From Chitinophagales bacterium (GTDB lineage Bacteria; Bacteroidota; Bacteroidia; Chitinophagales; UBA2359), in contig JBGCDY010000154.1 of assembly GCA_045105835.1 (NCBI GenBank), positions 1-35,080 of the forward strand: a stretch of DNA of 35,080 bases. Reading direction: 5' to 3'. Under the pieces are notes generated by a model. It saw only the letters and a list, made by a program, of their open reading frames with translations, was not told the origin of the DNA and made no database searches. The translations under genes and the position numbers were made by a program. Positions 3,796-25,965 of this stretch are shown one piece after another; position 1 is the first letter of the stretch; each line of letters starts with the position of its first letter.

Positions 3796-5904
3796 TTAAT
3801 CCATCAAATCCACTGCTTTGCTCACCTCTTCAACAGGAAATTTGCACACCTTGTTTTGGCAGACATAAATACGGGTTTGCCCTTCCACCAATTTACTTTT
3901 GAGCAATTCCAAAGTACCTTCTTCCTTTCCTCCCAATAGAAAAGCATGGGGTAAGAAATGTTCGTCCATCTCTACCCGTTTCGCTGCAAAATTATCTCCC
4001 ACAATCGCTACTTCATAAGGTGTTTTTACAAAATGCGTCATCAAAGTCCCCCAATTGGAATAAAAAGGAGCCTGCATTTTTACATCCTCTTTCACGTTGG
4101 TCAACATCTGTTCTGACATTTTTAAGTAATCCTCCTGATTGAAGTAAGTACCCAAATAGAACAAAGCTTTTGCCATGGAAGAATTGGAACTTGGAATCAC
4201 ATTGTCAGTGATTTCCATTTTTCGAGCAATCAAAGCTGCATCCTGATCTGATGTGTAAAAGAACATTTTGGAATTGTCATCGTGAAAATGAGCAATGGCA
4301 TATTCTGCCAAGTCTTTGGATTTGTAGAGCCATTGTTCGTCAAAAGTGGCTTGGTATAAACCGACGAAAGCTTCAATGAGCAAAGAATAATCATCCAAAA
4401 AAGCATTGATGGAAGATTTGCCGTCCTTGTAATTTCGATTCAACCTATTGTCACTTTGCAGCGCATTTTTGACCAGAAAATTGGCGTTCTTCAAAGCAAT
4501 GTCTAAAAACTCCTGCTCTCCAAATACTCGGTAAGCATCCACATAGCCCTTCAACATCAGCGCATTCCATCCCGTCAAAACCTTATCATCCAAAGGAGGG
4601 CGCACTCTTTTGTCACGAGCCGCCATCAATTTCACTTTTGAATCTGCCAACACTTGATTCAGTTGCTGCAATGGGATAGCTAATTTTGAAGTAACCGTCT
4701 TTTTATCTTTCAATACCCGCAATACATTTTTGTGTTCCTCCCAATTTCCCTTTGGAGTCACATTGTAGTAAGCTCCAAAAATCGTCGCATCTTGCTTACC
4801 CAAAATCGAGTCAATCTCCGCTTTTGTCCACACATAAAATTTTCCTTCCTCCCCTTCGCTATCCGCATCCAAAGAAGAATAAAAACCACCTTCGGGAGAG
4901 GTCAATTCTCGTTTCACAAACTCCAATGTTTCGTAAACTTTCTGTTTGTAAAGTGGATTCGCTTCATATTGATAGGCTTCGGAGTACAAACTCACCAACT
5001 GCCCATTGTCATACAGCATTTTTTCAAAGTGTGGAACATGCCAGTCAGGGTCAGTAGAATAACGAGCAAAACCGCCTCCCAAATGATCGTAAATCCCACC
5101 ATTTGCCATAGATTCGAGCGTGACATTCACCGCCTTCAAAGCATCTTCATTTCCAAAAAGGCTGTGATAACGAAGCAGGTACGCCCAATTAGAAGGCATC
5201 GGAAATTTATTCGACTTAGTAGTTTTTCCTCCCTTTTTATAATCCAATAGGGATTTCCAAGTTTTGAAAATTTCGTCCAAATCCTCTTCCACAAAAGTTG
5301 CCGCTTCGGGTTGAAAAGGTACCATTTCGATTTGTTGGATTCCTTCGGTGATTTTTTCAGCTTGAGTCTCCAGTTCCGCCAAATCGTTCTCGTACTTATC
5401 TGCAAAATAATCGAGGATTTTCGTCCAATTGTCTTTCGGAAAGTAGGTTCCTGCAAAAATAGGGCGGCCATCAGGTAAAGCTATCGCATTCAGGGGCCAG
5501 CCTCCACTTCCATTGATCATATAAGCAGCATTCATGTAGATTTGATCCACATCAGGACGCTCTTCTCGATCTACTTTGATGCACACAAAGTTTTCATTCA
5601 TCTTCCGAGCCACTAAAGTATCCTCAAATGACTCATGCTCCATTACATGACACCAATGACAGGCAGCATATCCCACACTGATAATCAGCATTTTGTTTTC
5701 TGCTTTTGCCTTCGCCAAAGCTTCCTCTCCCCATGGAAACCAGTCCACGGGATTGTGGGCATGTTGCAGCAAATAGGGGCTGCTTTCATTGATAAGGTGA
5801 TTGGTGTATTGGTGATCGGTATGACTGTGTTCTCCTTGCTTTTGTGCTTTGCACGAAAAAAGCAATAAGGAAGCCACAAAAAAAGTAAATATTTTTTGGT
5901 ACAT
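3796..5904 (-). CDS. thioredoxin-domain protein, DUF255/YyaL (SPATA20-like) family, probable lipoprotein
   Basis: 702 aa. The N-terminal signal with LLFSC looks like a lipobox. It has [21 protein letters not shown] and [18 protein letters not shown] (thioredoxin-like CxxC) followed by an alpha/alpha-toroid-like region ([17 protein letters not shown]). Confidence 0.85.
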
Positions 5905-7589: not shown

Positions 7590-8006
7590 TCAATATAAAA
7601 TCAGTTGTGTACAAGAAAAGACGGCAATCTTCTTTTTGGTTTCTTTCCGCCTCACTTCTACCCTCCAAACGTGTGTCGTCCTTCCCAAATGCTCTACAAA
7701 ACTTTCTCCCTCCAAAACACCCTCCCTTGCAGCTCCTAAAAGATTGCTTTTGAGTTCGATCGTCGTAAAGGATTTTGCTTTTTCGGGCAAATGCAAAACC
7801 GTTGAATAACCTGCAATGGTATCTGCAAAAGTGATGATGCTCCCTGCATGTAAAAAACCATTTGGTGCAAAAAGTTCTTTTTTGACTGGCATTTCTGCAA
7901 GCATTTTGCCTTCTTCAATTTGGGTGATGGTGATTCCTAAAGAAGCGGGAAAAGTTCCTTTACTCATTTGGTTGAAGTGAGTGGGGTTTAGTTTTTTGTG
8001 GAACAT
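7590..8006 (-). CDS. PaaI/YdiI-type hotdog-fold thioesterase
   Basis: 138 aa with NGFLHAGSIITFADTIAGY and GRTTHVWRVEV blocks typical of PaaI-family acyl-CoA thioesterases. It ends in TGA. Confidence 0.85.
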   Translation of the reverse strand: MFHKKLNPTHFNQMSKGTFPASLGITITQIEEGKMLAEMPVKKELFAPNGFLHAGSIITFADTIAGYSTVLHLPEKAKSFTTIELKSNLLGAAREGVLEGESFVEHLGRTTHVWRVEVRRKETKKKIAVFSCTQLILY

Positions 8007-8772: not shown

Positions 8773-9990
8773 TCAATCCTTCTCTTCCTCCATCCACTCC
8801 AACAACTCATTAAAGGTATTCACCAATTCTTTTTGCTGCTTCCCTCCTACATTGCGGCTGTCGCAACGCTTCAAAAACACCTCCATCGGCTTCAAATCAT
8901 CCAAACTCACATTCCCCATTTCTTCGTCCAAACCTTTGATACGGTGTTTGTATTCAGTGCGGGTAATCAACACCTCTGCATTTTTGTCCGCCACAAATTG
9001 TCGAACCTGATGCTCTAAATCTGCCTCAAAAGTTTCCAATTCGATTTGAACCTCCAACCAAGTCGTTGGTTTGCCTTCAAAACTATCTAAAGCCAACAAT
9101 TTTTCAGTCACTTTTTCCATGTTCCCTTTTACTCGCAGTAGTTTTCGGTAATTGGGAATGGGCAAAACACGAATACCTGATAGTTTTCCTTCATTGAAGT
9201 CTATCAAAAGAGCCTGTTTGTCGTCTTTGTATTCTGTAAAACTCAATGGGATGGGTGAACCGCAATAACGAATGTGTTCTAATTTATTGACCAGTTGCGG
9301 CTTGTGAATATGCCCCAATGCCACGTAATCAAACATTTCTGAAAACGTTTCGGCAGTTACTTTGCCTTGATTCCCTATGTGAATGTCTTTTTCGCTGTCG
9401 GAGGTCATACTGCCTGCTGCAAATAAATGCCCTGTAGCAATGATGGGCAATTTTGAAGTGTCGTATTTTGCAGCGATGTATTCGGCTATGGTATGGTAGT
9501 GGTTGAAAATACCTTTTTGGGTTCGCTCTACTCTTTCCTTATAACTTTCTCCTGCAACAGCCTTACGGATGTCTCTTTCCTGCAAAAAAGGAACAGCTGC
9601 TACTACGCCAATTACATTGTCATTCTTGTCTTTTACTTCAATCACTTCCTCTTTCAAATCCTCAGGACAACCACCAACTACATGTACTTGAAGGTACTCC
9701 AAGAGTTCTTTGGGAGCATCCAAATTGCGTGGGGAATCGTGATTGCCGCCTGTAATGATGATGTTGTTGCAGTAGCTGATTGCTTTTCGTAAGAAATTGT
9801 AATACTGTTTTCGGGCGTAGTTTGGCGGATTGTGGACATCAAATACATCTCCTGCCACCACCAAAGCATCTACTTTTTCTTCCTTCAAGGTATCCAACAA
9901 CCATTGTAGAAAATGGTCATGCTCTTCTTGTCGGTCAAAATCACACAATCGCTGCCCTAAATGCCAATCGGCGGTATGGAGAATTTTCAT
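8773..9990 (-). CDS. sbcD: exonuclease SbcCD, nuclease subunit D (Mre11-like)
   Basis: 405 aa with the calcineurin-like phosphoesterase motifs HTADWHLG, VVAGDVFD, GGNHDS, GHLF and LGHIHKPQ plus a C-terminal SbcD_C-like region. It ends in TGA. Confidence 0.9.
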   Translation of the reverse strand: MKILHTADWHLGQRLCDFDRQEEHDHFLQWLLDTLKEEKVDALVVAGDVFDVHNPPNYARKQYYNFLRKAISYCNNIIITGGNHDSPRNLDAPKELLEYLQVHVVGGCPEDLKEEVIEVKDKNDNVIGVVAAVPFLQERDIRKAVAGESYKERVERTQKGIFNHYHTIAEYIAAKYDTSKLPIIATGHLFAAGSMTSDSEKDIHIGNQGKVTAETFSEMFDYVALGHIHKPQLVNKLEHIRYCGSPIPLSFTEYKDDKQALLIDFNEGKLSGIRVLPIPNYRKLLRVKGNMEKVTEKLLALDSFEGKPTTWLEVQIELETFEADLEHQVRQFVADKNAEVLITRTEYKHRIKGLDEEMGNVSLDDLKPMEVFLKRCDSRNVGGKQQKELVNTFNELLEWMEEEKD

Positions 9991-10052: not shown

Positions 10053-10436
10053 CTATATTTTCAATTTATCATTCGTATATTTGATCAGGATGTTTATGGA
10101 TTTGGGAAGTTTTTGGAGTTCTGTTGTGATGTACTCCTTCTCTTCCTTCGTAATCAATTTTCTAATGATTGCCTTTCTTGTCCAATCCAAACTTTCTTGA
10201 AGTGAGCCTGTGCTGTAGCGATAAAATTTAATTTTATCTTTTTTATGGTAACGACCAAATCCTTCTGCAATATTTGCAGAGATAGAATCGATTGCAGTTA
10301 CATACTGCTTACCAACCGTCCATTGAGCAAATTTATCCCACCTCATCACTATTTCCCACACATAGTTGCTAAGTTTGAAAGATATCATATATGCTTCAAT
10401 CCTATCTAAACCCAAATATCGTTTGTCATTAGACAT
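10053..10436 (-). CDS. four-helix-bundle protein (23S rRNA intervening-sequence protein / Avd-like family)
   Basis: 127 aa with AYMISFKLSNYVWEIV, SISANIAEGFGRYHKKDKIKFYRYSTGSLQESLDW, the characteristic blocks of this family. Confidence 0.85.
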   Translation of the reverse strand: MSNDKRYLGLDRIEAYMISFKLSNYVWEIVMRWDKFAQWTVGKQYVTAIDSISANIAEGFGRYHKKDKIKFYRYSTGSLQESLDWTRKAIIRKLITKEEKEYITTELQKLPKSINILIKYTNDKLKI

Positions 10437-10461: not shown

Positions 10462-10500
10462 CAACCATTTGACAATAAAACCATATAGCCATTTAACAAT
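10462..10500. repeat. right arm of imperfect inverted repeat flanking the four-helix-bundle gene
   Basis: The reverse complement attgttaaatggctatatggttttattgtcaaatggttg pairs with 9995-10033. It contains ccatttaacaat (10489-10500) and ccatttgacaat (10465-10476). Confidence 0.75.
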
Positions 10501-10506
10501 TAGAAT

Positions 10507-11895
10507 TTATTCTTCTACCTCTTCCTCCATCATTTCCTCATCAATGATTTCTTCCTCTTCTTCTTGGAGTAATTCTGTTGGAGGAGCTTGTTTGGAAATG
10601 CTGTGCTTGGCAACGATTTCACTCCAATTTGGAAGTGCATTGTAGTGCCATTTGTCCACTACGATTCCATCTTTGATTAAGACGACACCAGGATTTGCAC
10701 GAATCATCGTTTTGATAGGTACGGCATCCAAGTTATAGAACTTATAGAGATTGTCAGTGAATTTTTGGGCGTGGTCTAATATTGAAGCAGTCAAACCTAT
10801 AACGGGAACATTGTCTCCAAGGGCTTCTTTCATTACCTGATTTACCTTCACAAATCCTTTTTCCACATTTGCTTTGTCAATATTGTAGGCTCCTACAAAT
10901 ATGGTGAATCCTGGGCGGGCTAAAATAGCTTCTGCTACTTCATTGTCTCCATCATCATAAATCACAAAATCTTTGATAGTTGCGGATTTACCTTCTTCGA
11001 GCGTTACCTGTTCGGTTTTTTCATTGTCCAAAACCCATGTTTTGTCTTTCCAAATACCACTGTCAATATATTCCTGGCTCTCAACTTTTTTCACTTCGCC
11101 ACTCCCCTCTTTGACAAGTGTGTACATGGTCTGTACTTTGGGAGGAATTCCATCATTTCGTCCATCAATCAAATTGGCTCCTACTTTGTAAGCTCTGAAG
11201 TCAACGATTGGCAAGTTGTTCACATTTCGCATACTGAATAAAAGTGATGCGACACCCAGTACGCCTAAAATAATCCATGACATTTTTTTGTTGAAAACCA
11301 ATTTGATATGCCCCGATAAGAAGTACATCAAAAATATCAAGGCTGTCAAGACTACATCTTTCAAGAAGGATTCATAGGGTTTGAGCTTTACGAAATCACC
11401 AAAACAACCGCAATCGGTTACTCGCATATTAGAATCTTTGAAGCTTTCCCACTGTGCAAACTGAAAGAAGGTCGCATCTTTTGGTACATACCCTGTTAGG
11501 TAAGTGAAGCCTGTCAGTACTGTAAAAAACAGGGTGAGTCCTATATATAGCCACAAAGTGGTTTTTCGGAATGTTCCCAAAATGAGGGAAATACCCAGTA
11601 CAATCTCCAAAATTATCATGAAAATAGATAGAGGTAATGCGATTCCTATTAGGAGTTCCCACAAACCTGTGAACAAAGAAAAATGTTCTGTAAATACATT
11701 GAAGTAATCTTCTATTTTGATGGCTGTTCCTGTTGGGTCTATCGCTTTGATGATACCCGAAAAAACAAAGAATGTTCCCAAAAAACTGCGTAGATAGTGT
11801 ATCAACCAATTTTCAGGCTTGCTGAGAAGTCCTGTGATGATGGTAACACCTACTGCCAAAAGGGCAATCAATCCGATAAGTGAAAATATAGTCAT
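10507..11895 (-). CDS. MauE/DoxX-family integral membrane protein fused to a thioredoxin-like C-terminal domain with a poly-acidic tail
   Basis: 462 aa with about 5-6 transmembrane helices, a TDCGCFGDF motif (MauE/DoxX-type) and a soluble alpha/beta C-terminal half. It ends QEEEEEIIDEEMMEEEVEE. Confidence 0.65.
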   Translation of the reverse strand: MTIFSLIGLIALLAVGVTIITGLLSKPENWLIHYLRSFLGTFFVFSGIIKAIDPTGTAIKIEDYFNVFTEHFSLFTGLWELLIGIALPLSIFMIILEIVLGISLILGTFRKTTLWLYIGLTLFFTVLTGFTYLTGYVPKDATFFQFAQWESFKDSNMRVTDCGCFGDFVKLKPYESFLKDVVLTALIFLMYFLSGHIKLVFNKKMSWIILGVLGVASLLFSMRNVNNLPIVDFRAYKVGANLIDGRNDGIPPKVQTMYTLVKEGSGEVKKVESQEYIDSGIWKDKTWVLDNEKTEQVTLEEGKSATIKDFVIYDDGDNEVAEAILARPGFTIFVGAYNIDKANVEKGFVKVNQVMKEALGDNVPVIGLTASILDHAQKFTDNLYKFYNLDAVPIKTMIRANPGVVLIKDGIVVDKWHYNALPNWSEIVAKHSISKQAPPTELLQEEEEEIIDEEMMEEEVEE

Positions 11896-13814: not shown

Positions 13815-14549
13815 ATGCTTCACTCTATTAAGGGGATTGTCTTAAAAACTTTTAAATATTCCGAATCCAGTGTAGTTGCTAAAATTTATACAGATCAATT
13901 TGGGATTCAATCCTATATGATTAACGGCGTTCGGACAAGTAGTAAGAGTAAACATAAGGCAGGTTTGCTTCAACCTCTTACCTTGTTGGATATGGTGGTT
14001 TATTATCGAAAGAATCGCAGTATGCAGCGCATTAAGGAGATGAAACCAACAAGAACATTTACTTCAATTCCTTTTGACATTGGTAAAAGTTCGCTTGCTT
14101 TGTTTGTGACAGAATTACTTTATTCAACTTTGAAAGAGGAAGAGGAAAACAAACGTCAGTTTGACTTTATTTCTGAGTTTGTACAAAATCTAGATGATAC
14201 TACTGAATCTATTGCCAATTTGCACCTCTATTTTTTACTACAACTCAGTGGTTTTCTTGGATTTTATCCTTTCAGCAACTACGATAAAGAGAGGCGAAAT
14301 ATTTTTGATTTACAAAACGGTTCTTTTTCTTCAAATCGTCCAATGCACCCTTATTACCTTCAAGATCCCTTGTCAAAACATCTTACCTCCTTATTAAACT
14401 CTCCGCTGGAAGAGCTTCATTTAATAAAAATCAACAAGGTATATCGCAAAGAATTATTGACTGCTTTATTACAGTTTTACACCTTGCATATTGAAGGTTT
14501 TAGACCATTGAAGTCTGTTAAGATTTTGCAAGAAGTATTTGGTTTTTGA
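13815..14549 (+). CDS. recO: DNA repair protein RecO
   Basis: 244 aa. The N-terminal OB-fold pattern is GIVLKTFKYSESSVVAKIYTDQFGIQSYMINGVR. It ends in TGA. Confidence 0.9.
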   Translation: MLHSIKGIVLKTFKYSESSVVAKIYTDQFGIQSYMINGVRTSSKSKHKAGLLQPLTLLDMVVYYRKNRSMQRIKEMKPTRTFTSIPFDIGKSSLALFVTELLYSTLKEEEENKRQFDFISEFVQNLDDTTESIANLHLYFLLQLSGFLGFYPFSNYDKERRNIFDLQNGSFSSNRPMHPYYLQDPLSKHLTSLLNSPLEELHLIKINKVYRKELLTALLQFYTLHIEGFRPLKSVKILQEVFGF

Positions 14550-14602: not shown

Positions 14603-14641
14603 AAAAAACCCAAGTTCAAACTTATTGAACTTGGGTTTTTG
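14603..14641. terminator. bidirectional rho-independent terminator between convergent recO and infB
   Basis: 11-bp stem cccaagttcaa (14609-14619) / ttgaacttggg (14625-14635), flanked by A6 and T5. Confidence 0.8.
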
Positions 14642-14676: not shown

Positions 14677-17106
14677 TTAAAGAGTTCGTTTAATTTCAAT
14701 CTCTTCAAAACCTTCAATCACATCTCCAGCCTTAATATCGTTGTAGTTTTTGATTCGAATACCACACTCTTGACCAGGTAACGCTTCTTTGACATCGTCT
14801 TTAAAACGTTTCAGAGTTTCGATTTCTCCTGTAAATACTATAATTCCATCTCTAAGCAAGTGAATTCTAGTAGCCTTAGTCACTTTACCAACTGCTACAT
14901 AACACCCTGCAACGGTACCCACTTTGGAGATTTTGAATGCTTCTCGAACTTCGATGTTGCATACAAAACGTTCTTCCACTTTTGGTTCCAACATTCCCTC
15001 CATTGCAGATTTAATTTCTTCAATGGCATCATAAATGATGGAGTAAGTTCTGATTTCGATGCTTTCTTGTTCTGCATTTCGGCGTGCATTGATTGTCGGG
15101 CGCACTTGGAATCCAACAATAATCGCATCAGATGCTGAAGCCAACAATACATCGGATTCGGTAATTGCACCTACCCCTCTATGTATCACATTGACCCTAA
15201 TCTCTTCGGTAGAAAGTTTCAACAATGAATCTGTTAATGCTTCTACAGAACCATCCATATCCCCTTTCACAATAAGGTTCAACTCTTTGAAAGTACCAAT
15301 CTTCAGACGACGGCCAATTTCCTCAAGAGTAATATGTTTAGAAGCTCTAAACCCTTGCTCTCTAATAATCTGAGCTCGCTTAGTAGCAATTGATTTGGCC
15401 TCTTGCTCGCTCTTCATGACTTTTACCCTGTCACCTGCTTGAGGTGCACCATTCAAACCAAGAATTGTTACGGGAGTAGCGGGACCAACTTTTGTTTTCA
15501 CCCTATTGCCTCTCTCGTTGAACATTGCTTTGACTTTACCAACATGCTGTCCAGCCAGTACCATATCTCCTACTTTCAGAGAACCGTTTTGAACCAAGAT
15601 ATTGGAAACATATCCTCTACCTTTATCCAATGATGCCTCCAATACAGTTCCAATTGCTTCACGATTTGGATTCGCTTTCAACTCCAAAAGCTCCGCTTCC
15701 AACAATATTTTCTCCAATAATTCATCCACATTTGTACCAAACTTAGCTGATATTTCTTGTGATTGATATTGTCCTCCCCAATCTTCTACCAATAAATTCA
15801 TGGCAGCAAGTTGTTCCTTAATTTTTTCAGGTAATGCTGTTGATTTGTCCACTTTGTTGATGGCAAAAATCATCGGTACATTTGCTGCTTGTGCGTGACT
15901 AATCGCCTCTTTTGTTTGAGGCATAATGTCATCATCTGCTGCAATAACAATCACTGCAATGTCCGTAACTTTCGCTCCCCTCGCACGCATCGCTGTAAAT
16001 GCTTCGTGACCAGGTGTATCCAAAAAGGTGATTTCTTTACCACTTTCTGTTGTCACCTCATAAGCTCCAATGTGCTGAGTAATTCCTCCCATCTCACCAG
16101 CGATTACATTTGCATTTCTAATGTAATCCAGCAAAGAAGTTTTACCATGATCAACGTGTCCCATCACCGTAACGACTGGTGCACGTGGCTCTAAGTCTTC
16201 TTCAGCATCATTGAAATAGTCTTCTTCTTCATCCTGCTCAGTAACGTTGATAAATTCAGTTTCAAATCCAAATTCATCTGCAACTAATTCGATAACCTCT
16301 GCATCCAATCGCTGGTTTATAGATACAATGATACCCAAATTGAAACAAGTCGTAATGACCTTATTAACTGCTACATCCATTAATTTGGCAAATTCATTTA
16401 CTGAAATGAACTCGGTAACACTCAATACATTGGTTTCTGTATCCTCTACCAAGTCTCGTTTGATAGCAGCTTGCTCTCTTTTTTGTTTTCTTAACTTAGC
16501 TCGGTTACTCTTCCCTTTGGAAGTACCACTAAGTTTAGCCATTGTGGCCTTGATTTTATCTTGAATCTCTTTTGCAGAAACTTCTGTTGCTTCAATGTTT
16601 CTATTTCCGCTTGTATGTGGTTTCTTTTTCCTTCTCTTTTTAACTCTGAGCGTCTTTTCGTTCGGAGTTCTTGTTTTAGTTCCTCCAGGTTGATCCGACT
16701 TCTTAATAGCTACTTTCTTATCTGTAGACTTAATAATCCTCTTTCTTCTCCTTCTCTTAGGTCTAAGCCCTCCTTCAGTACTTTCCTCTCCTTCTTTTTT
16801 ATCTTGCTTTGCAGATAAGTCAATTTTACCTATTACTGTAGGGCCCTTGAGCTGAACCTTGGGTCTCTCTTTTATTTGTCTTTCATCCCCATCTTGTTTC
16901 ACTCCATCTTGTTGGCTTCCTACATTTTTTTCTCCTTCTGTTCCTGGCTTAACCCTTCGTTTTCTCTCTTTTCGTTTTCTTTTCTTATCTGGTCGGGTCT
17001 TCCAGTTTGTGCCACTAAGGTCAATTTTACCAATAACCTTAGGTCCAGCAAGTTCAATTTCTGGAGGACTCACCACATTTGTTTGTTTAGCCTCTTTTAC
17101 AACCAC
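14677..17106 (-). CDS. infB: translation initiation factor IF-2, linker plus second IF2_N domain, GTPase and C-terminal domains (portion downstream of the in-frame TGA)
   Basis: Contains [15 protein letters not shown] (G1), DTPGHEAF (G3), NKVD (G4) and the conserved domains II, C1 and C2. The GTG at 17104-17106 is only the first permitted start after the stop; the true initiation point is unknown. Confidence 0.9.
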
Positions 17107-17190
17107 CTTTTCTTCTTTATTTATAGTCTTCTCAGTATTGACTTTACCTTCAACTGTGTTACTTTCTTCAACAGTATTGGTTTTATCAAT

Positions 17191-17193
17191 TCA
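17191..17193 (-). other. infB: in-frame TGA codon interrupting infB
   Basis: The ORFs 18093-17191 and 17106-14677 are in the same frame (987 nt apart, which is 329 codons). The 28 codons between the TGA and the GTG are stop-free and read [28 protein letters not shown]. Confidence 0.9.
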
Positions 17194-18093
17194 TTTAGGT
17201 GAAGAATCCCCATCTGCATTACTTTTCAGAGTAGGAGTTTTAAGTTCTTTCTCCAACACTGGTTTTACAACCTGCTTTTGTTCCGCTTTTTGAACAGGAA
17301 TATCTTTCTTTTCTCCTTCAACTGACGAAGGTACTTCACTCTCTTGTTTTTCTTCAGTTTTCTTGGCTACAAGGTCAGAAGGTGGAGTAGTTTCAACCTC
17401 TTTTTGAGGTTCAATATCTTTAGTCTCAACGACTGGTTTAATTTTCTTTTCCTCTACTGTTGGCTCTTTGACCTTTGAGTCATCTTTTGGTAGAATCTTG
17501 CTCTCTGTAGTCTTTTTTGTCTCCGTTGATACAGAAATTGGCAAAGCTTCTTTTTCAGAGCTCGGCTGTTTTTCTTTATTTTCTTCGACAACCTTCGTTT
17601 CTTCTATGACAGGCACAGCTGGAACGATTTTATCCTGCGGGACACTTTCATCATGTTCCACAACAGGAGGAGTGACAACTTTATTAATAGCTTCTGGCTT
17701 AATTTCGGCAGAGGGCAATTCAGTAGCTATTGGCGTTACTGGGACTATAGGTGTCTTTTCTACATCAGGTTCTTTTTGAGGCGTTGTATCTTTCTTCCTA
17801 GTTTTTTTGCTAGTTGGAGAAGATGTATCTGATGTTACGGCTCTTTCATTCACTCTTTTCGTCTCTCTTTCACGCTTATTCCGCAAACTAATTAGGTTTG
17901 CTTTCTCTTTGAGTGCAATAGAAGATTTAAAATCAGTGATGAGAATATCATACATCTCCGGTGTTAACTTTGTAGTAGGTTTACTTTCTACCTCAAAGCC
18001 TTTTTTCAAGAGATGTGCCGTTATGGTATCAATACCCACGTTAATTTCTCTCGCTACCTTAGCCAGTCTTACTGCCTTTTTGGTTTCTGCCAT
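17191..18093 (-). CDS. infB: IF-2 N-terminal segment (IF2_N domain plus Pro/Glu/Lys/Thr-rich low-complexity linker), terminated by an in-frame TGA
   Basis: MAETKKAVRLAKVAREINVGIDTITAHLLKKGFEV is the IF2_N helix bundle found at the start of long bacterial IF-2 proteins. The remainder is a low-complexity linker. Confidence 0.85.
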   Translation of the reverse strand: MAETKKAVRLAKVAREINVGIDTITAHLLKKGFEVESKPTTKLTPEMYDILITDFKSSIALKEKANLISLRNKRERETKRVNERAVTSDTSSPTSKKTRKKDTTPQKEPDVEKTPIVPVTPIATELPSAEIKPEAINKVVTPPVVEHDESVPQDKIVPAVPVIEETKVVEENKEKQPSSEKEALPISVSTETKKTTESKILPKDDSKVKEPTVEEKKIKPVVETKDIEPQKEVETTPPSDLVAKKTEEKQESEVPSSVEGEKKDIPVQKAEQKQVVKPVLEKELKTPTLKSNADGDSSPK

Positions 18094-18128
18094 GTAAGCT
18101 ATTAATGTATTATTTATTAAAAGTAATT

Positions 18129-19412
18129 CTAAATTTCTTCTTCATCAAACTCCGCCTTCAAAATATTTCTTATTTCAAGAACTGTTTCTTCCTCTAAATC
18201 TGTTCTTCTAAGTAATTCTTCAATACTTAAGTCCAAGACATTTTTTGCTGTGTCACAACCAATATCCTGCAATATTTTGATAATCCACTCATCAATCTCG
18301 TCTGCAAATTCTTGAATATCTATATCATATTCATCGTTGCTTTCATCAATATCCCTAAATACATCTATCTCGTATTTAGTAAGTTTACTTGCCAGTCGAA
18401 TATTAACACCACCCTTCCCAATTGCCAAAGAAACCTGATCAGGCTTCAAATAAACAGCAGCACGAGTAGCTTCTTCATCCACATCCATGTGAACAACTTT
18501 TGCTGGTGTTAAGGCTCTTTGAATGAGTAGCTTTGTATTAGCGGTATAATTTATTATATCGATATTCTCATTTCGTAATTCTCTAACTATTCCATGAATA
18601 CGAGAGCCTTTCATCCCTACACAAGCTCCAACAGGATCTACTCTATCATCAAAGGATTCTACTGCTACTTTTGCTCTATCTCCAGGTTCTCTAGCAATCC
18701 TACGAACAGCTATTAAACCATCAAAAATTTCAGGAACTTCTAATTCTAACAACTTCGCCAAAAACATATTATCTGTTCTTGACAATATAATTCGAGGTTT
18801 ATTATTTCTCATTTCTACTTTCTTGACAACTGATCGAACAGTATCACCTTTCTTGTAGAAATCACTACCAATTTGCTCATTTTTAGGTAGAATTAATTCA
18901 TTCCCGTCATCATCTAATACCAGCATTTCACGCTTCCAAATCTGATATACCTCACCAGTGACAATCTCTCCGACCCTATCACCATATTTCTTATATAACT
19001 CATCATTTTCGAGCTCCAATATTCGTGAGATTAGTGTTTGCCGAGCAGCAAGGATAGCCCTTCTACCGAAATGCAACAAAGTAATCTCCTCATAAAGTTC
19101 CTCTCCAATCTCGTAATCCTCTTCTATTTTAATTGCTTCCAAAAAAGCAACTTCTTTATTTGGGTCTATTACTTCCCCATCATTGACAATTTCTCGTCTT
19201 CTCCAAATCTCAAGGTCACCTTTTTCCGTATTTACGATAATATCGAAGTTTTCATCACTTCCATATTTCTTTCGCAATAATGTTCTAAATACATCATCCA
19301 ACACACGCATCATTGTTGGACGATCGATATTTTTAAATTCCTTAAAATCTGCAAAGGATTCAACCAAATCAATATTTTTAGCTTTTCTCCTTGTCTTCGC
19401 CATCTTAAACAA
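18129..19412 (-). CDS. nusA: transcription termination/antitermination factor NusA
   Basis: 427 aa with the NusA N-terminal domain, S1 (GEIVTGEVYQ), two KH domains (GACVGMKGSRI, AIGKGGVNIRLA) and an acidic C-terminus. The alternative ATG at 19403 is equally plausible. Confidence 0.95.
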   Translation of the reverse strand: MFKMAKTRRKAKNIDLVESFADFKEFKNIDRPTMMRVLDDVFRTLLRKKYGSDENFDIIVNTEKGDLEIWRRREIVNDGEVIDPNKEVAFLEAIKIEEDYEIGEELYEEITLLHFGRRAILAARQTLISRILELENDELYKKYGDRVGEIVTGEVYQIWKREMLVLDDDGNELILPKNEQIGSDFYKKGDTVRSVVKKVEMRNNKPRIILSRTDNMFLAKLLELEVPEIFDGLIAVRRIAREPGDRAKVAVESFDDRVDPVGACVGMKGSRIHGIVRELRNENIDIINYTANTKLLIQRALTPAKVVHMDVDEEATRAAVYLKPDQVSLAIGKGGVNIRLASKLTKYEIDVFRDIDESNDEYDIDIQEFADEIDEWIIKILQDIGCDTAKNVLDLSIEELLRRTDLEEETVLEIRNILKAEFDEEEI

Positions 19413-19424
19413 TTTTGAATGAAT

Positions 19425-19889
19425 CTAAAATGTTACCTTTTTTTTCACATGCTTAATAGCATCAAAAGGTATCGTTGTTTCTTGAATGATTAACTTCTTC
19501 TTCTTTTGCTTGATATGTTCTTCTATCACAATTTCCTCATCTGAAGTTTCTTTGAGAATTCCCTCCTTCAAATTGCCATCTATTAGTTGAACAATCACAT
19601 GTCTTCCCTGATTTTTTTTGTATTGTCGCATCACCTTAAAAGGTTTCGACATTCCAGGAGATGATACTTCTAAATAGAGATTTTCATGCCATAGTTCCTC
19701 TTCTTCTAAACTATTTCTCAAATACTTAAATATCTTCACACAATCACCACTTGTGACATTATTATCTCTATCAACAAATATCTGGATCTTGTTTCCTGGA
19801 ACTGGTTTCAATTCTACTATAAAAAAAGAAGAATCTTCTTCAAACCTAAGTTCTAGTAATTGTTTAATTCTTTTAAGAATAGTCGCCAT
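19425..19889 (-). CDS. rimP: ribosome maturation factor RimP
   Basis: 154 aa with LEVSSPGMSKPFK and an Sm-like C-terminal domain. It occupies the canonical position upstream of nusA-infB. Confidence 0.9.
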   Translation of the reverse strand: MATILKRIKQLLELRFEEDSSFFIVELKPVPGNKIQIFVDRDNNVTSGDCVKIFKYLRNSLEEEELWHENLYLEVSSPGMSKPFKVMRQYKKNQGRHVIVQLIDGNLKEGILKETSDEEIVIEEHIKQKKKKLIIQETTIPFDAIKHVKKKVTF

Positions 19890-19902
19890 ATATCAATTTA
19901 AT

Positions 19903-19930
19903 AAAAAAGAGGGCACATATAAGCCCCCTC
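19903..19930 (-). promoter_or_regulatory. leader hairpin followed by U6, immediately upstream of the rimP start
   Basis: The minus-strand RNA is GAGGG-GGCUUAUAUGUG-CCCUC-UUUUUU: a 5 GC-rich bp stem (plus 2 inner pairs) followed by a U tract ending 13 nt before the ATG. Confidence 0.35.
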
Positions 19931-19944
19931 AACATTTTCTGCTA

Positions 19945-19952
19945 CAAAAATA
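19945..19952 (-). promoter_or_regulatory. candidate -7 box (TATTTTTG) for rimP-nusA-infB
   Basis: The reverse complement of caaaaata matches TAnnTTTG about 55 nt upstream of the rimP ATG. A second match (TAAATTTG, 20027-20034) lies further upstream. Confidence 0.35.
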
Positions 19953-20033
19953 CGTTTATTTTTTTGTCTCTAAGAAATATGTTGATGCAAACTAGAACAT
20001 TTTTCACTAATTTGTTAAATGATACAACAAATT

Positions 20034-20081
20034 TACACAAAAAAAGGGTAATTGTCTCTAATAGACCCTTACCCTTTTTAT
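20034..20081 (-). terminator. rho-independent terminator ending the ribosomal alpha operon (after rplQ)
   Basis: The minus-strand RNA is AAAAAGGGUAA-(17-nt loop with inner GUCU/AGAC pairing)-UUACCCUUUUUUU. It lies about 35 nt downstream of the rplQ stop. Confidence 0.6.
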
Positions 20082-20112
20082 AATTATACTAAAATGTCTT
20101 ATTACATCTTAC

Positions 20113-20592
20113 TTACTCTTCAGAAGAATTATCATCATTAGTAGTGTTTTCAACATCACTACTTGTAGATTTCTTACGTCCTCTACGGGTTCTTCTACGT
20201 TTTCCTGATTTAGAATCTGATTTGAGTAGGTTTTCATTATAATCTACCAACTCAATCATTGCCATTTCAGCACCATCTCCAAACCGAAAACCAAGTTTGA
20301 TTACTCTAGTGTAGCCACCGGGTCTAGTTGCTATTTTTTCACTAACCTCATCAAATAATTCTCTTACCGCTTCTTTATCTTGAAGATAAGAAAACACAAC
20401 TCTTCTATTATGCGTTGTATTTGACTTTCCTTTCGTTAATAAAGGCTCTATATATTTTCGTAAAGCCTTAGCCTTAGCTAAAGTTGTTTGAATACGTTTG
20501 TGCTTAATCAAAGAACAAGCCATATTCGCAAGTAAGGCTTTTCTATGTCCAACTTTTCTTCCGAGATGATTAAACTTTTTTCCGTGTCTCAT
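20113..20592 (-). CDS. rplQ: 50S ribosomal protein L17 (bL17)
   Basis: [25 protein letters not shown]... with a basic/acidic C-terminal tail. It is the last gene of the alpha operon. Confidence 0.97.
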
Positions 20593-20661
20593 GACTACAT
20601 CTATATTTCGATATTAGATACTACGATTACCTCCTTAAGGAAAACATTATTCCCCTTCAAT

Positions 20662-21660
20662 CTATTCTTCGTCGAGTTTATATTTACTCAAGTCCATTCC
20701 AAAAGAAAGTCCTTTTTCTTGAATTAGATGTTCTATTTCCATCAAGGACTTCTTTCCAAAATTTCTAAACTTTATCAATGAGCTAGTATCGTAAGTAACT
20801 AATTCTTGTAAAGTATTAATTTTAGCTGCTTTCAAACAGTTATAAGCTCTTACAGAAAGATCTAAGTCTTCTAATGGAGTTTTTAATAGCTTACGCATAT
20901 GTAATATATGTTCATCTACTATATCATCCTCTTCACCTGGTTTCTCATCAAAAGTAATCTTCTCATCAGTAATCAACATCAAATGCTGGATAAGGATTCG
21001 TGCAGATTCTTTTATTGCATCTTCAGGATGAATTGTTCCATCTGTCTTAATCTCTATAATAAGCTTCTCATAATCCGTTCTTTGCTCAACACGAGTACTT
21101 TCTACATTGTATCGAACATTTTTAATTGGAGTGAAAATAGCATCAATTGGAATCAAACCATGAACCATATCCTTCGGCTTATTATCCTCTGCAGGAACAT
21201 AACCCCTTCCTTTTTGTACAGTTAATTCAATATCCAAATTAACAAAAGACTCCATGTGACATATCACTAAATTAGGATTTGTTATCTTAAAGGTAGCAGT
21301 ATGTTTTTCAATATCTCCAGCCTCAAATTTATCCTCACCGCTTATAGACACAAATATTTTTTCTGATGTCAGATCATCATCTTTTATTATTTTCTTAAAT
21401 CTAACTTGTTTAAGATTTAAAATGATTTCTGTGACATCTTCAATAACTCCTGTTATTGTAGAAAATTCATGGTCTACACCGCTTATTTTAATTGCAGTAA
21501 TAGCATATCCTTCTAAGGAAGACAAAAGAACCCTTCTAATAGAATTACCAACAGTGACACCAAATCCTGGCTCTAATGGTTTGAATTCAAAAAGCCCTTC
21601 ATTATCTGTAATTTTATGCGCTACAATTTTATCTGGCTGATGAAATGTTAAAAGTCCCAT
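20662..21660 (-). CDS. rpoA: DNA-directed RNA polymerase subunit alpha
   Basis: 332 aa with GNSIRRVLLSSLEG, the insert and dimerisation domains, and a C-terminal domain containing LDLSVRAYNCLK. Confidence 0.97.
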   Translation of the reverse strand: MGLLTFHQPDKIVAHKITDNEGLFEFKPLEPGFGVTVGNSIRRVLLSSLEGYAITAIKISGVDHEFSTITGVIEDVTEIILNLKQVRFKKIIKDDDLTSEKIFVSISGEDKFEAGDIEKHTATFKITNPNLVICHMESFVNLDIELTVQKGRGYVPAEDNKPKDMVHGLIPIDAIFTPIKNVRYNVESTRVEQRTDYEKLIIEIKTDGTIHPEDAIKESARILIQHLMLITDEKITFDEKPGEEDDIVDEHILHMRKLLKTPLEDLDLSVRAYNCLKAAKINTLQELVTYDTSSLIKFRNFGKKSLMEIEHLIQEKGLSFGMDLSKYKLDEE

Positions 21661-21685
21661 AAATGATTTTAAATATTACTAAGAA

Positions 21686-22291
21686 TTATTTGGAGTACAA
21701 CTCCACAATCAACTGATCTTCAATATTCTCTGGTATTTGATCTCTTTCGGGTATTCCAATGAATTTTCCTTCCATTTTTGACTCATCCCAATCAAGCCAA
21801 GGAAATTTCTTTCCTTTTTTAGCTATTGAACCAGTAATCACCTCTAATTCTCTTGATTTGCTTCGTATACCTACAACATCACCAATCTTTAATCTACGAG
21901 ATGGAATATTACATTTCGATCCATTTACTAGTAAGTGGCAGTGAGTAACAAGCTGTCTAGCTGCAGGACGACTAGGAGCTAGTCCCATTCTATATACAAC
22001 ATTATCTAACCGAGATTCTAATAATTGCAGTAAGATTGTCCCAGTAATACCTTGTTTTCTACTTGCCTCTTTAAATAAATTTCGGAATTGTCTTTCCAAA
22101 ACACCATAGGTATATTTCGCTTTCTGCTTTGCCTTTAATTGAATACTATATTCAGATAACTGCTTGCGTCTTTTGGAAGTTCCATGCTGTCCAGGTGGAT
22201 GTCCTTTTTTCTCAAAGGATTTATCGTATCCGAATATCGCCTCACCAAATTTACGTGCAATTTTGGTTTTTGGTCCTATATAACGTGCCAT
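21686..22291 (-). CDS. rpsD: 30S ribosomal protein S4 (uS4)
   Basis: [17 protein letters not shown]... with the S4 RNA-binding domain [13 protein letters not shown]. Confidence 0.97.
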
Positions 22292-22343
22292 ACTCTTGTT
22301 TCTATTTCTTTTTCTACGATGAACCTAATATTGAAAATTTGAG

Positions 22344-22739
22344 TTATACTCTGCGTCGCTTAGGCGGGCGACAACCATTATGAGGCAAAGGTGTTACATC
22401 ACGAATGATTGTAACCTCAATACCCATATTATGTACTTCTCTAATAGCAGCTTCTCTTCCTGATCCAGGACCTTTTACTAAGACCTCTACTCGTTTCAAC
22501 CCAGCATCCATTGCTTTCTTAGCAGCATCTCTTGCTGCTACTTGAGCCGCATAAGGAGTGTTTTTCTTAGACCCCTTAAAGCCCGCTTTACCAGCTGAGG
22601 CCCATGAAATAACTTGACCAGCAGCATTAGTAAATGAAATAATAATGTTGTTGAAGCTTGCTTTTATGTAAACTTTACCTTCAGATTCTACTCTGACGAT
22701 ACGTTTCTTAACCTTCGAAACTCGTCTTTTCTTTGCCAT
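22344..22739 (-). CDS. rpsK: 30S ribosomal protein S11 (uS11)
   Basis: ...[26 protein letters not shown]...[11 protein letters not shown]...[13 protein letters not shown]. Confidence 0.97.
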
Positions 22740-22772
22740 ATTACTTACAGATAGTTAGCAATTTGATAAATA

Positions 22773-23150
22773 CTATTTCCTTGGAGCTTTTTTCTTGCCC
22801 GCAACTGTCTTCTTTTTACCTTTCCTTGTCCGAGCATTGGTGCTCGTACGTTGTCCTCGCAAAGGCAATCCCTTACGGTGACGAATTCCACGATAACATC
22901 CAATATCCATCAAGCGTTTGATATTCAGCTGCACTTCTGAACGAAGCTCACCTTCTACAGTATATTCACTTACCATAGTACGCAAACGAGTTATTTCATC
23001 GTCTGTTAATTCTTGAATTTTTTTAGTCGGCTCGATATCCGCGCTATCAAGTATTGCCAAAGCACGGGTACGCCCTATCCCATAAATATAGGTGAGCGAT
23101 ATCGAACATTTTTTATATTTGGGTAAATCAACCCCAGCTATACGTGCCAT
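22773..23150 (-). CDS. rpsM: 30S ribosomal protein S13 (uS13)
   Basis: [26 protein letters not shown]...[17 protein letters not shown]. Confidence 0.97.
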
Positions 23151-23152
23151 AT

Positions 23153-23269
23153 TTATCCTTGTCTTTGTTTAAACTTTGGATTCTTTTTATTAATTACGTA
23201 GAGTTTTCCTTTCCTGCGAACTATTTTGCAATCACTGCTACGTTTCTTAATTGATGCTCTAACTTTCAC
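23153..23269 (-). CDS. rpmJ: 50S ribosomal protein L36 (bL36), zinc-free type
   Basis: Missed by the ORF track because it is under 60 aa. The hand translation from GTG (23267-23269) is (M)[37 protein letters not shown], 38 aa. Its TAA ends 2 nt before the rpsM start. Confidence 0.93.
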
Positions 23270-23303
23270 GAGAGTATATTATTTTGTGCGTTTATTAAAA
23301 AAA

Positions 23304-23522
23304 CTATTTGTATCTATAAATAATTCTTCCTCTGCTCAAATCATAGGGAGACATTTCCAAAGCAACTTTATCCCCTGGCAAAATACGAATATAGTTCATT
23401 CTCATTTTGCCTGATATCGTAGAAACCACTATATGTCCATTTTCTAATTGAATTCTGAACATTGCATTGGATAATGCTTCTGTCACTATTCCATCTTGTT
23501 TTATAAGCTCTTGCTTTGCCAT
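23304..23522 (-). CDS. infA: translation initiation factor IF-1
   Basis: 72 aa: [30 protein letters not shown]...[30 protein letters not shown]. Confidence 0.97.
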
Positions 23523-23621
23523 GTTTTTTTAATAATACTCTTGAAAAAAAACAGGAGTTAGTGGACTTAAAAGTCACCCCCCTAATTCGGAGTGCAAATA
23601 TCGGTTTTTTATTGCTAATTT

Positions 23622-24440
23622 CTAAGCAATTTCACTTAATTCTGCATTATTTTTAATCGCAGCTTCAATATAGTCAAAAGTAGAAAGAATATCAGGGGTA
23701 TTTTTGTTTACTGCCACCGTATGTTCAAAGTGAGCAGAAGCTTGTCCATCTGCAGTAGAGATAGTCCATCCATCAGTACTCCTAATTACATCTTTTTTAC
23801 CCATATTTATCATAGGCTCAATTGCAATAACAAGTCCATCTAATAGTTTTGGTCCTCTGCCTCTTTTCCCAAAGTTAGGAACCTCAGGTGCTTCATGAAG
23901 TTGTCTCCCCACACCGTGACCAACTAACTCCCTAACAACACCGTATCCATATTTTTTCTCTGTATGCTGTTGAATAGCAAAGCTAATATCTCCAACTCTT
24001 TTCCCAACTACTGTTTGCTCTATTCCCTTATAAAGAGATTCTTTAGTAACCTCCAACATTTTTTTCACATTATGGTCTACCTCCCCTACACAGTAAGTAT
24101 AGGCAGAATCTCCATAATAACCATTAGCAATTACTCCACAATCTATAGACACGATATCTCCACCTTTCAATTCATACTTTCCAGGCATTCCATGTACGAC
24201 TTGATCATTCACGGAAATACATAGAGTAAAAGGGAAGTCGTTATAGCCCTTAAAACCTGGAATTGCCTTTTGATCTAAAATAAATTCTTCTGCGATCTCA
24301 TCTAATTTAATAGTTTGCACACCAGGTCGAATAAACTCAGCAACGACACCATGTGTTTTACCTACTAGTAAACAGCTATAGCGAATTAATTCTATTTCTT
24401 CTTTTGTTTTATAAAAGATTTTTTTTGACTTTTTCCGCAA
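23622..24440 (-). CDS. map: type I methionine aminopeptidase
   Basis: 272 aa with metal ligands in the DIVSIDCG, GYYGDSAYT, VGHGVG, IEPMI and AHFEHT contexts. The N-terminus has no ATG, so the start is inferred as TTG at 24438-24440 (an in-frame TAA lies 8 codons upstream). Confidence 0.92.
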   Translation of the reverse strand: MRKKSKKIFYKTKEEIELIRYSCLLVGKTHGVVAEFIRPGVQTIKLDEIAEEFILDQKAIPGFKGYNDFPFTLCISVNDQVVHGMPGKYELKGGDIVSIDCGVIANGYYGDSAYTYCVGEVDHNVKKMLEVTKESLYKGIEQTVVGKRVGDISFAIQQHTEKKYGYGVVRELVGHGVGRQLHEAPEVPNFGKRGRGPKLLDGLVIAIEPMINMGKKDVIRSTDGWTISTADGQASAHFEHTVAVNKNTPDILSTFDYIEAAIKNNAELSEIA

Positions 24441-24519
24441 TTGACCAACATTTTTAATTACTTAAACGAACTATATCAACACCAGAATAAGAGTTTCTAC
24501 TCTTTGTGTACCTATTTCA

Positions 24520-24556
24520 GAAAAAAAGTTTCCCAACATTATTTTGCAGGGAAACT
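24520..24556 (-). terminator. rho-independent terminator-like hairpin between secY and map
   Basis: The minus-strand RNA is AGUUUCCC-(14-nt loop)-GGGAAACU-UUUUUU. It has a perfect 8-bp stem (24527-24534 / 24549-24556) followed by a U tract, about 60 nt after the secY stop. Confidence 0.55.
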
Positions 24557-24615
24557 TCTGTATTTTTAATTAAAATATTTTGTTAATCGAGTTTGATGAA
24601 GCATAATGTTCAACA

Positions 24616-25965
24616 TTATACGCTCGCTCCAACTGCCTGTCTGCTTCTAACTCGAGCATTTCCTTTCATGAGTCCATCATAATGACGCATCAATAGATGG
24701 CTCTCAATTTGTTGTAGTGTATCCAACATTACCGCAACTAAAATCAGCAACGATGTTCCACCATAAAAATCAGCAAATTGACTATTAATTCCTATCATAT
24801 TTGCGAATGCAGGCATAATAGCTACCAAACCTAAGAACATTGACCCTGGTAATGTAATCCGAGACATGATATTATCAATAAACTCTGAGGTTTTCTTCCC
24901 TGGTTTCACTCCTGGAATATACCCTCCATTCCTCTTCATATCATCAGCCATTTGAGTAGGGTTGATAATAAGTGCTGTATAGAAATACGTGAATAAAACA
25001 ACCATTAAGAAGAAGAAAAAATTATACCAAAATGACAAGTAAAAAGTACCTTGTTGAATACTCTGCATTAATCCAGAATCTGGAAAAAACTGTGCAGCAA
25101 AAGAAGGAATAAACATCAATGCTTGAGCAAAGATAATAGGCATTACACCCGCAGCATTCACTCGTAATGGAATGTATTGACGTGCTCCACCATATTGTTT
25201 ATTACCTACGATTCGTCTTGCATATTGAACAGGAATTCGACGAGTTCCTTGGACTAACAAGATTGTAACGATTATGATTGCAATCCAGAACGCTATTTCA
25301 ACTACGAAGAACACTAAGCCCCCTCCAGTACTTGAAGCCAATTTTGATTGTAATTCTGCTGCAAGACCAAAAGGTAACCTTGCAATAATACCAATCATAA
25401 TCAACAAAGAAATCCCATTTCCAATCCCTTTATCTGTAATTTTCTCTCCTAACCACATACAGAAGACTGTCCCTGCAGTTAAACAAAATACAGTAGAAAT
25501 AACAAACAAACCTCTTGAAATAACAATAGCGTCTTGTCCTGCGATAGAATAAAGGAATGTAACATACCCTACAGCTTGTACACCAGTTACTACTACAGTC
25601 AAATACCTTGTAATCCTTGAGATTTTACTTCTCCCAGCTTCCCCATCTTTCTGCATTTTTTGAAAGTAAGGTACTGCCAACGTAAGCAATTGCATTGCAA
25701 TAGATGCGGAAATATAAGGCATAATCCCAAGTGCAAAAATGGACGCTCTGGTAAAAGAACCTCCAACAAACATATCTAATAATGCAATTAATCCACCTCT
25801 AGACCCTTGGCTTGCAAGTTGATCTAAAGCACCTACGTCTACCCCAGGTATTACAATAAAAGAACCTATCCTGTAAACAAGAATAAGTCCTAAAGTAAAA
25901 AGAATCTTATTCCTAAGTTCTTCTATTTTATAAATATTTTTTATAGTATCAATCAGCTTGTTCAT
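24616..25965 (-). CDS. secY: preprotein translocase subunit SecY
   Basis: 449 aa with 10 transmembrane segments, including ALGIMPYISASI and GGYIPGVKPGK..T..I. Confidence 0.97.
   Translation of the reverse strand: MNKLIDTIKNIYKIEELRNKILFTLGLILVYRIGSFIVIPGVDVGALDQLASQGSRGGLIALLDMFVGGSFTRASIFALGIMPYISASIAMQLLTLAVPYFQKMQKDGEAGRSKISRITRYLTVVVTGVQAVGYVTFLYSIAGQDAIVISRGLFVISTVFCLTAGTVFCMWLGEKITDKGIGNGISLLIMIGIIARLPFGLAAELQSKLASSTGGGLVFFVVEIAFWIAIIIVTILLVQGTRRIPVQYARRIVGNKQYGGARQYIPLRVNAAGVMPIIFAQALMFIPSFAAQFFPDSGLMQSIQQGTFYLSFWYNFFFFLMVVLFTYFYTALIINPTQMADDMKRNGGYIPGVKPGKKTSEFIDNIMSRITLPGSMFLGLVAIMPAFANMIGINSQFADFYGGTSLLILVAVMLDTLQQIESHLLMRHYDGLMKGNARVRSRQAVGASV

Follow-up and report, generated by a model that had tools for sequence, protein, structure and literature searches.

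In Escherichia coli, infB gives rise to three isoforms of initiation factor 2 (IF-2), namely IF2-alpha, IF2-beta and IF2-gamma (equivalent to IF2-1, IF2-2 and IF2-3), through the use of in-frame start codons (PMC12297416; bioRxiv 10.1101/2021.11.18.469101). Cells that are left with IF2-gamma alone grow more slowly, and Domain I of the factor contacts NusA (PMC12297416), while removal of the N-terminal disordered region was found to cause no phenotype at 37 C and to confer cold sensitivity (bioRxiv 10.1101/2025.02.02.631968). Here we examine an infB gene whose N-terminal part is separated from the remainder by a single TGA codon, located on the minus strand of contig JBGCDY010000154.1 of a Chitinophagales bacterium; the entire NCBI contig of 35,080 bp was analysed and is referred to below as the window. 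Sequence comparisons show that the stop is private to this contig and derived, that no recoding signal accompanies it, and that the part of the gene downstream is intact and under purifying selection. We see about an even chance that the TGA is a non-programmed, strain-private change of TCA (Ser301) to TGA in a disordered, fast-evolving linker, and that this change is real and recent.

The locus resembles the E. coli isoform system in that one infB mRNA can give a shorter IF-2 with all essential domains, the part lost being the N1 subdomain and the disordered linker, and in that infB follows nusA in one operon. It differs in that full-length IF-2 is also made in E. coli and the internal starts there are conserved and dedicated, whereas here the stop would abolish the full-length factor, and in that the candidate starts are GTG codons that no Shine-Dalgarno sequence precedes, in a phylum whose ribosomes take no account of this signal. 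Engineered N-terminal deletions of the E. coli factor provide an analogue for the phenotype that would be predicted, with cells viable at 37 C, cold-sensitive or slower in growth, and deprived of the NusA contact (bioRxiv 10.1101/2025.02.02.631968; PMC12297416). Those are laboratory constructs, whereas in this strain the N-terminal part would continue to be produced, as an independent polypeptide of 300 amino acids (aa), provided that the TGA is real. The third and most commonplace parallel is the ordinary nonsense polymorphism, or "internal stop" pseudogene call, of draft genomes and metagenome-assembled genomes, in which a single-base stop in one assembly is matched by a sense codon in close relatives; the present case differs from it in affecting an essential gene, though in a region whose loss is survivable.

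The infB frame and codon 301 across strains and relatives

The upstream open reading frame (ORF) of infB (18093-17191, minus strand) encodes 300 aa from an ATG start and ends with the TGA at 17193-17191, and the downstream ORF (17106-14677, minus strand) encodes 809 aa from a GTG start in the same frame. The TGA, which is codon 301, is the sole stop between the two, and translation through it from 18093 to 14677 yields one IF-2 of 1138 sense codons. Over the 3.4 kb of the gene the infB frame holds only this TGA and the terminal TAA, against 64 and 122 stops in the other two frames, and its openness is therefore not due to chance. The sequence-only reading of this DNA had described an infB divided by one in-frame TGA, and the frames, the coordinates, the 28 open codons behind the stop and the 1138-residue read-through product were all reproduced, so that an unbroken frame linking the N-terminal domain with the C-terminus is lacking in this gene. 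The downstream ORF carries everything that is essential in IF-2.

Contigs of public sequencing runs that hold the same species (approximately 99.7% identical) were aligned to the window, and seven samples have contigs that cover the site (runs X1, X3, X5, X7, X8, X11 and X18, comprising five eukaryotic-host and two biofilm metagenomes). Plus-strand position 17192 is C in the window and G in the contigs of all seven, which gives TCA (Ser) on the gene strand; the change at codon 301 is thus a single base, a C-to-G transversion from TCA to TGA. In each of these samples the G at 17192 is linked to a C at 17220 (Asp292) and a G at 17228 (Pro289), and the window departs from all of them by three non-synonymous changes (17192, 17220 and 17228), private to it and confined to 37 bp of the linker. 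It had been argued from the sequence alone that reads with a sense codon at 17191-17193 would reduce the split to a sequence error; a sense codon is indeed what the seven samples carry, but these are assembled contigs of other samples and strains, not the reads behind this assembly, and the refutation is therefore only partial.

The outgroup for these comparisons was P0053, an uninterrupted IF-2 of 1156 aa that clusters with the downstream product at 90% identity; its gene lies on L081, a JGI contig of 29.7 kb whose gene order matches that of the window. The two factors are 100% identical over residues 1-60, 54% identical in the linker (61-300) and 94-99% identical beyond the linker. In the alignment of orthologues, a check that the sequence-only reading had proposed, L081 has TCA (Ser) opposite the TGA and GAT (Asp) at codon 292, like the other strains, and the stop is shared by no relative; given that TCA and GAT occur both in L081 and in the other strains, the TGA and the AAT of the window are derived and private. 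The closest GTDB representatives, which are Chitinophagales with IF-2 proteins 54-71% identical and none of them close at the species level, are too distant for a codon-by-codon alignment of the linker and were used only for gene continuity. Their infB is uninterrupted from the N-terminal domain to the core in 76 of the 76 relatives with enough upstream sequence, as it is in L081, from which it follows that the split is not a habit of the lineage. Judged from these sequences, the normal IF-2 of the species is the uninterrupted form of 1138 aa.

Differences within the species are almost entirely synonymous in the infB core (13 of 14) and exclusively non-synonymous in the linker (6 of 6). Relative to L081 the linker diverges at about the synonymous rate while its frame stays open, and its tolerance is evident from an identity of 54% versus 99% in the core. 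Taken together with the disorder prediction, these comparisons place the stop in a spacer whose sequence is hardly constrained and whose openness is constrained, and the pattern of substitutions shows the downstream ORF to be under purifying selection. The same pattern bears on the explanation that this infB is a plain pseudogene, dead beside an intact second copy elsewhere in the genome, for which it can be said that the evidence base is a single 35-kb contig. However, the copy is intact but for one stop, the differences among strains in its core are those nearly all synonymous ones, and it sits in the canonical rimP-nusA-infB operon in synteny with the close relative (the gene order is the same in L081), a setting that identifies it as the orthologous primary copy. 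In addition, infB is single-copy in nearly all bacteria, and we regard a dead copy as very improbable.

Decoding of the TGA

In the window, TGA terminates recO (13815-14549), sbcD (8773-9990) and the gene of a 4HBT thioesterase (7590-8006), the three genes from which the sequence-only reading had argued that TGA is a true stop here, and this usage agrees with its view that a reassignment of the code-4/25 type is unlikely. For recO and sbcD, the L081 counterparts end at the identical residue, also with TGA, and similarity collapses right after it. TGA ends only four of the 38 ORFs of the window, and no conserved gene other than infB contains it internally. A search for a selenocysteine insertion sequence (SECIS)-like or otherwise stable hairpin 3' of the infB TGA found none, since the 101 nt around and downstream of it fold no better than shuffles (z = -0.43), and an Rfam scan of the window gave no match. 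The residue aligned to the TGA in the close relative is a Ser in a disordered linker, not a Cys or selenocysteine in an active site. Decoding of the TGA as an amino acid, whether by code 4 or 25 or as selenocysteine, has the open frame through the codon and nothing else in its favour, and we consider it so improbable as to be negligible. Reassignment is ruled out by the TGA ends of recO and sbcD that match L081, together with the lack of any other ORF with an internal TGA, and selenocysteine is ruled out by the missing SECIS-like hairpin and by the Ser codon TCA in the relative and the other strains.

UGA is the leakiest stop codon in bacteria, and it can be proposed that leaky readthrough by a near-cognate tRNA-Trp in the UGA-A context supplies enough full-length IF-2, with the stop serving as an attenuator that sets the ratio of the short to the full-length form. 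The frame that continues through the TGA, followed by 28 codons of ordinary linker that are open in the close relative as well, is consistent with this proposal. Against it stand the stop itself, which is not conserved in any relative or other strain examined, the absence of a stimulatory structure in the 101 nt mentioned above, and the basal readthrough of approximately 0.1-1%, which would be too low for an abundant factor. We judge leaky readthrough as a sufficient source of IF-2 to be improbable, and conserved programmed readthrough is ruled out, as the stop was found in no other strain or relative examined. Of the options listed in the sequence-only reading (an error, a tolerated split, or programmed or leaky readthrough), the error and the tolerated split remain, and programmed readthrough has to be given up with a stop that is unshared.

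Origin of the stop and supply of IF-2

According to the reading that we favour, a recent private nonsense mutation, the base would be real in the source DNA and internal initiation would supply IF-2. The contig is otherwise accurate, with about 40 genes free of frameshifts and no private difference in 18100-25600 relative to X2 and X4, two plant metagenomes that are the runs nearest to the window (one difference in this interval for X4, five for X2). Its two other private alleles in infB, at 15475 and 16453, are synonymous, a pattern expected of real variants, not of errors, and they indicate real variation from a strain not otherwise sampled. Relative to X2 and X4, the private differences of the contig are confined to infB, with five in 1.75 kb and none in 18100-25600; these five could mark a stretch acquired by recombination from a strain outside the sampling, or an assembly that followed a chimeric path across a conserved gene.

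If the mutation is real, translation from the ATG at 18093 would stop at codon 301 and release an orphan 300-aa fragment that consists of the N1-like domain and the linker. To produce the essential part of IF-2, ribosomes would have to initiate or re-initiate at a downstream start in the same frame, the candidates being GTG 17106 (with the best context), GTG 17073 and ATG 16542, and the product would be an N-terminally truncated IF-2 comparable with IF2-beta/gamma of E. coli or with the delta-N constructs. Small amounts of the full-length factor would come from UGA readthrough at a low level.

The first in-frame starts after the TGA are GTG 17106, GTG 17076, GTG 17073, GTG 16902 and ATG 16542. 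Start contexts were scored with a position weight matrix (PWM) built from 32 genes of the window, for which true starts score 3.0 (sd 2.5). Among these first starts GTG 17106 combines the best context with the least local structure and has an A-rich sequence upstream; high conservation with the close relative resumes at this codon, and the GTG is kept in L081. The product on record for this contig, P0002, has 798 aa and is 11 residues shorter than the 809-aa ORF. The genes of the window have A/T-rich leaders and no Shine-Dalgarno sequence, and A-rich leaders without Shine-Dalgarno sequences have been described for Bacteroidia (PMC6847099, PMC7797042). Together with the context and low structure of GTG 17106, this lends plausibility to a start behind the TGA. 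A scan for sigma-70 type promoters inside infB gave no more sites than shuffles did.

Several observations weigh against a real mutation that is rescued by internal initiation. GTG 17106 scores less (0.62) than true starts do on average, initiation at GTG is weak in Bacteroidia when no Shine-Dalgarno sequence precedes it, and no excess of synonymous conservation is seen around GTG 17106, the ordinary level there giving no sign of a pre-existing internal start. The N-terminal domain is 100% conserved with L081 (residues 1-60) and its link to the core is kept in 76 relatives, so that loss of the link should carry a fitness cost; the upstream ORF has decayed no further, which means that a real mutation would have to be very young. 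The three clustered non-synonymous private changes also resemble one bad patch of low coverage. Neither X2 nor X4 has a contig across 17157-17228, and no independent read or contig among the indexed runs shows the TGA allele.

The weight of this last negative depends on what the index contains. Three 31-mers were sampled around the site, and every run with any of them holds one only. This is true of G-allele runs as well, so the shared word cannot cover 17192, and the two 31-mers with the TGA allele appear to be held by no indexed run. The private 16453 allele of the window is likewise in no indexed run; as none of the runs holds the private alleles of the contig, the source sample is absent from the index, and the missing TGA allele there consequently says nothing on error versus real. 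No reads of this bacterium are present in the raw-read runs of the host organism from 2026 (X24-X26, X33 and X34), the exact 300-aa product was found on no other contig, and a 27-mer around the site was found, with either allele, in no JGI metagenome contig.

The rival that shares these data is a sequencing or assembly artefact, by which the true codon would be TCA and a low-quality or chimeric stretch would have brought in the changes at 17192, 17220 and 17228. It is favoured by the TCA at codon 301 and the GAT at codon 292 in all seven other samples and the close relative, by the contrast of three non-synonymous private changes in 37 bp with none in the neighbouring 7.5 kb, and by an essential gene that is uninterrupted in the 76 GTDB relatives and in L081. 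The depth of this bacterium is only about 3-6 in the runs that hold it, and coverage in the assembly may have been thin as well. On the other hand, the contig is clean elsewhere, without frameshifts and with synonymous changes as its remaining private alleles, and some exceptional local failure would be required to explain three substitution errors within 37 bp in the middle of a 35-kb contig. A templated mis-join would need a donor, and none was found in the window. We give the artefact a serious chance, if somewhat short of even.

Two more specific origins were tried and rejected. There is no support for a templated origin of the three clustered changes, or for one by gene conversion, as the window holds no donor longer than chance. 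The ancestral form of the stop site (17186-17195) is a perfect 10-bp palindrome, ATCAATTGAT, which contains CAATTG and is destroyed by the C-to-G change. Restriction avoidance is not supported as an origin of the change at ATCAATTGAT, nor is a systematic miscall at a methylated motif, because CAATTG is found 22 times in the window versus 16.5 expected, so that the motif is not avoided, and these 22 other sites are intact; a methylated-motif miscall is for this reason an unlikely route to an artefact.

Broken infB linkers occur in other metagenome contigs as well. Matches to the N-terminal fragment in a protein search led to three Bacteroidota metagenome contigs (L082, L083 and L084) with an infB that, as in the window, follows rimP-nusA and is interrupted within its low-complexity linker. 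L082 (ENA ERZ1756109 k141_2993137, also in NCBI), a contig that is listed for three samples, has one in-frame TAG at 5823-5825 (codon 275), located where the linker is basic, and this single in-frame stop is a point for the reading of a real change in the window. It differs from the window in that its stop is TAG and lies further downstream, past both GPxVIGKIDL motifs, and it may represent either a further tolerated split or a further error. The infB genes of L083 (5001-7579, in a poly-A/K-rich stretch) and L084 (5001-7887, in a G-run/Gly-rich stretch) carry frameshifts that probably arose as homopolymer errors during assembly, and these error-like breaks speak for the artefact. The event in the window is unrelated to any of the three; all or some of them may be assembly errors, and interrupted infB linkers may pose a problem that recurs in annotation.

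Both surviving readings, a young tolerated nonsense mutation and a base-call error, are ordinary and of an already known kind. The stop should accordingly not be read as evidence of recoding, of programmed readthrough or of a lineage-specific split IF-2, and for annotation the gene is best described as infB with an internal stop and an ancestral Ser301. If the stop is real, the strain would be a small natural experiment on the role of the N-terminal domain and disordered linker of IF-2, which in E. coli concerns NusA binding and fitness in the cold, and it would be informative on how ribosomes of Bacteroidia pick internal starts without a Shine-Dalgarno sequence. A bolder version, in which the TGA is real and fixed in a eukaryotic-host-associated Chitinophagales strain that has no full-length IF-2, makes a free 300-aa N-domain protein and derives the core from a GTG without a Shine-Dalgarno sequence, is conceivable but in our view doubtful. 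If true, the N-domain (the NusA binder in E. coli) would be naturally uncoupled from the initiation factor proper, and a natural example of internal initiation or re-initiation would be available in a phylum whose ribosomes ignore Shine-Dalgarno sequences.

Domain organization and genomic setting

Pfam matches on the read-through IF-2 are PF04760 (IF2_N, residues 560-611), PF00009 (GTP_EFTU, 640-797), PF22042 (813-892), PF11987 (915-1028) and PF03144 (1059-1126), which is the expected succession of IF2_N before the GTPase, then EF-G_D2, the IF-2 domain and the C-terminal beta-barrel. The match at 560-611 is the only one to IF2_N in the gene and lies within the downstream ORF. The sequence-only reading had labelled the upstream ORF as IF2_N, a label that Pfam does not support, with no IF2_N match in this 300-aa ORF even at E = 10; a sequence search of the PDB with the same ORF gave no match either. 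In an AF2 model of the upstream ORF, residues 1-88 have a predicted local distance difference test (pLDDT) value above 90, and residues 94-300 fall below 50, which denotes disorder. An alignment of 24 IF-2 N-termini shows this domain, about 88 residues long, to be a conserved N-terminal element of Bacteroidota IF-2. Foldseek matched it weakly to Thermus thermophilus IF2 1-363 (prob 0.82-0.90, E 0.6-1) and to the N2 sub-domain of Pseudomonas aeruginosa IF2 (root-mean-square deviation of 1.5 A over 48 columns, E 4), alongside small DNA-binding domains of the MerR, RacA and BldC-like kinds, and all of these best matches had E >0.1. Residues 1-88 are probably the counterpart of the E. coli N1 subdomain (IF2 N1-like). 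The features of the gene and its operon are collected in Table 1.

Table 1. Positions of infB features, candidate internal starts, private alleles and upstream operon genes in the window
Feature	Position	Strand	Description
In-frame TGA, infB codon 301	17191..17193	-	Private to this contig; ancestral codon TCA (Ser); plus-strand 17192 is C
28 open codons, from the TGA to the first in-frame start codon	17107..17190	-	Linker sequence of the same low-complexity kind as upstream
Upstream ORF, 300 aa	17194..18093	-	Folded N-terminal domain, then disordered linker rich in Pro, Glu, Lys, Thr and Val
Folded N-terminal domain, residues 1-88	17830..18093	-	Strand-helix-helix-strand-helix plus a long helix
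Downstream ORF, 809 aa	14677..17106	-	Two 11-residue motifs, basic region, IF2_N, GTPase, EF-G_D2, IF-2 domain, GTP_EFTU_D2
GTG, codon 330	17104..17106	-	PWM 0.62; 93rd percentile of all NTG in the gene; -1.8 kcal/mol over 50 nt
GTG, codon 341	17071..17073	-	PWM 0.45; start implied by the recorded product P0002
ATG, Met518, first in-frame ATG after the TGA	16540..16542	-	621-aa product; precedes Pfam IF2_N and GTPase
Private substitutions linked to the TGA	17220 and 17228	-	N292 (Asp elsewhere) and L289 (Pro elsewhere)
Private synonymous alleles inside infB	15475 and 16453	-	Third-position changes
nusA	18129..19412	-	Pfam; directly upstream of infB
rimP	19425..19889	-	Pfam; upstream of nusA

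An 11-residue motif occurs twice before the basic region (17025-17046 and 16812-16842, residues 350-360 and 418-428), and the same motif is conserved across Bacteroidota IF-2 N-terminal regions, as judged from the consensus of the N-terminal alignment. The product of nusA has 427 aa, and acidic-repeat domains were not found in it by Pfam. On its other side infB is convergent with recO, and between the two genes there is a hairpin with a 16-bp stem at 14604-14640, flanked by A- and T-runs, which is likely a bidirectional terminator.

The remainder of the window consists of the alpha, spc and S10 ribosomal-protein operons and housekeeping genes, all of which are intact. Strains from samples of the host organism carry an 8-bp insertion, ACAATTCA, after position 10471, which is intergenic between the ORFs at 10053-10436 and 10507-11895.

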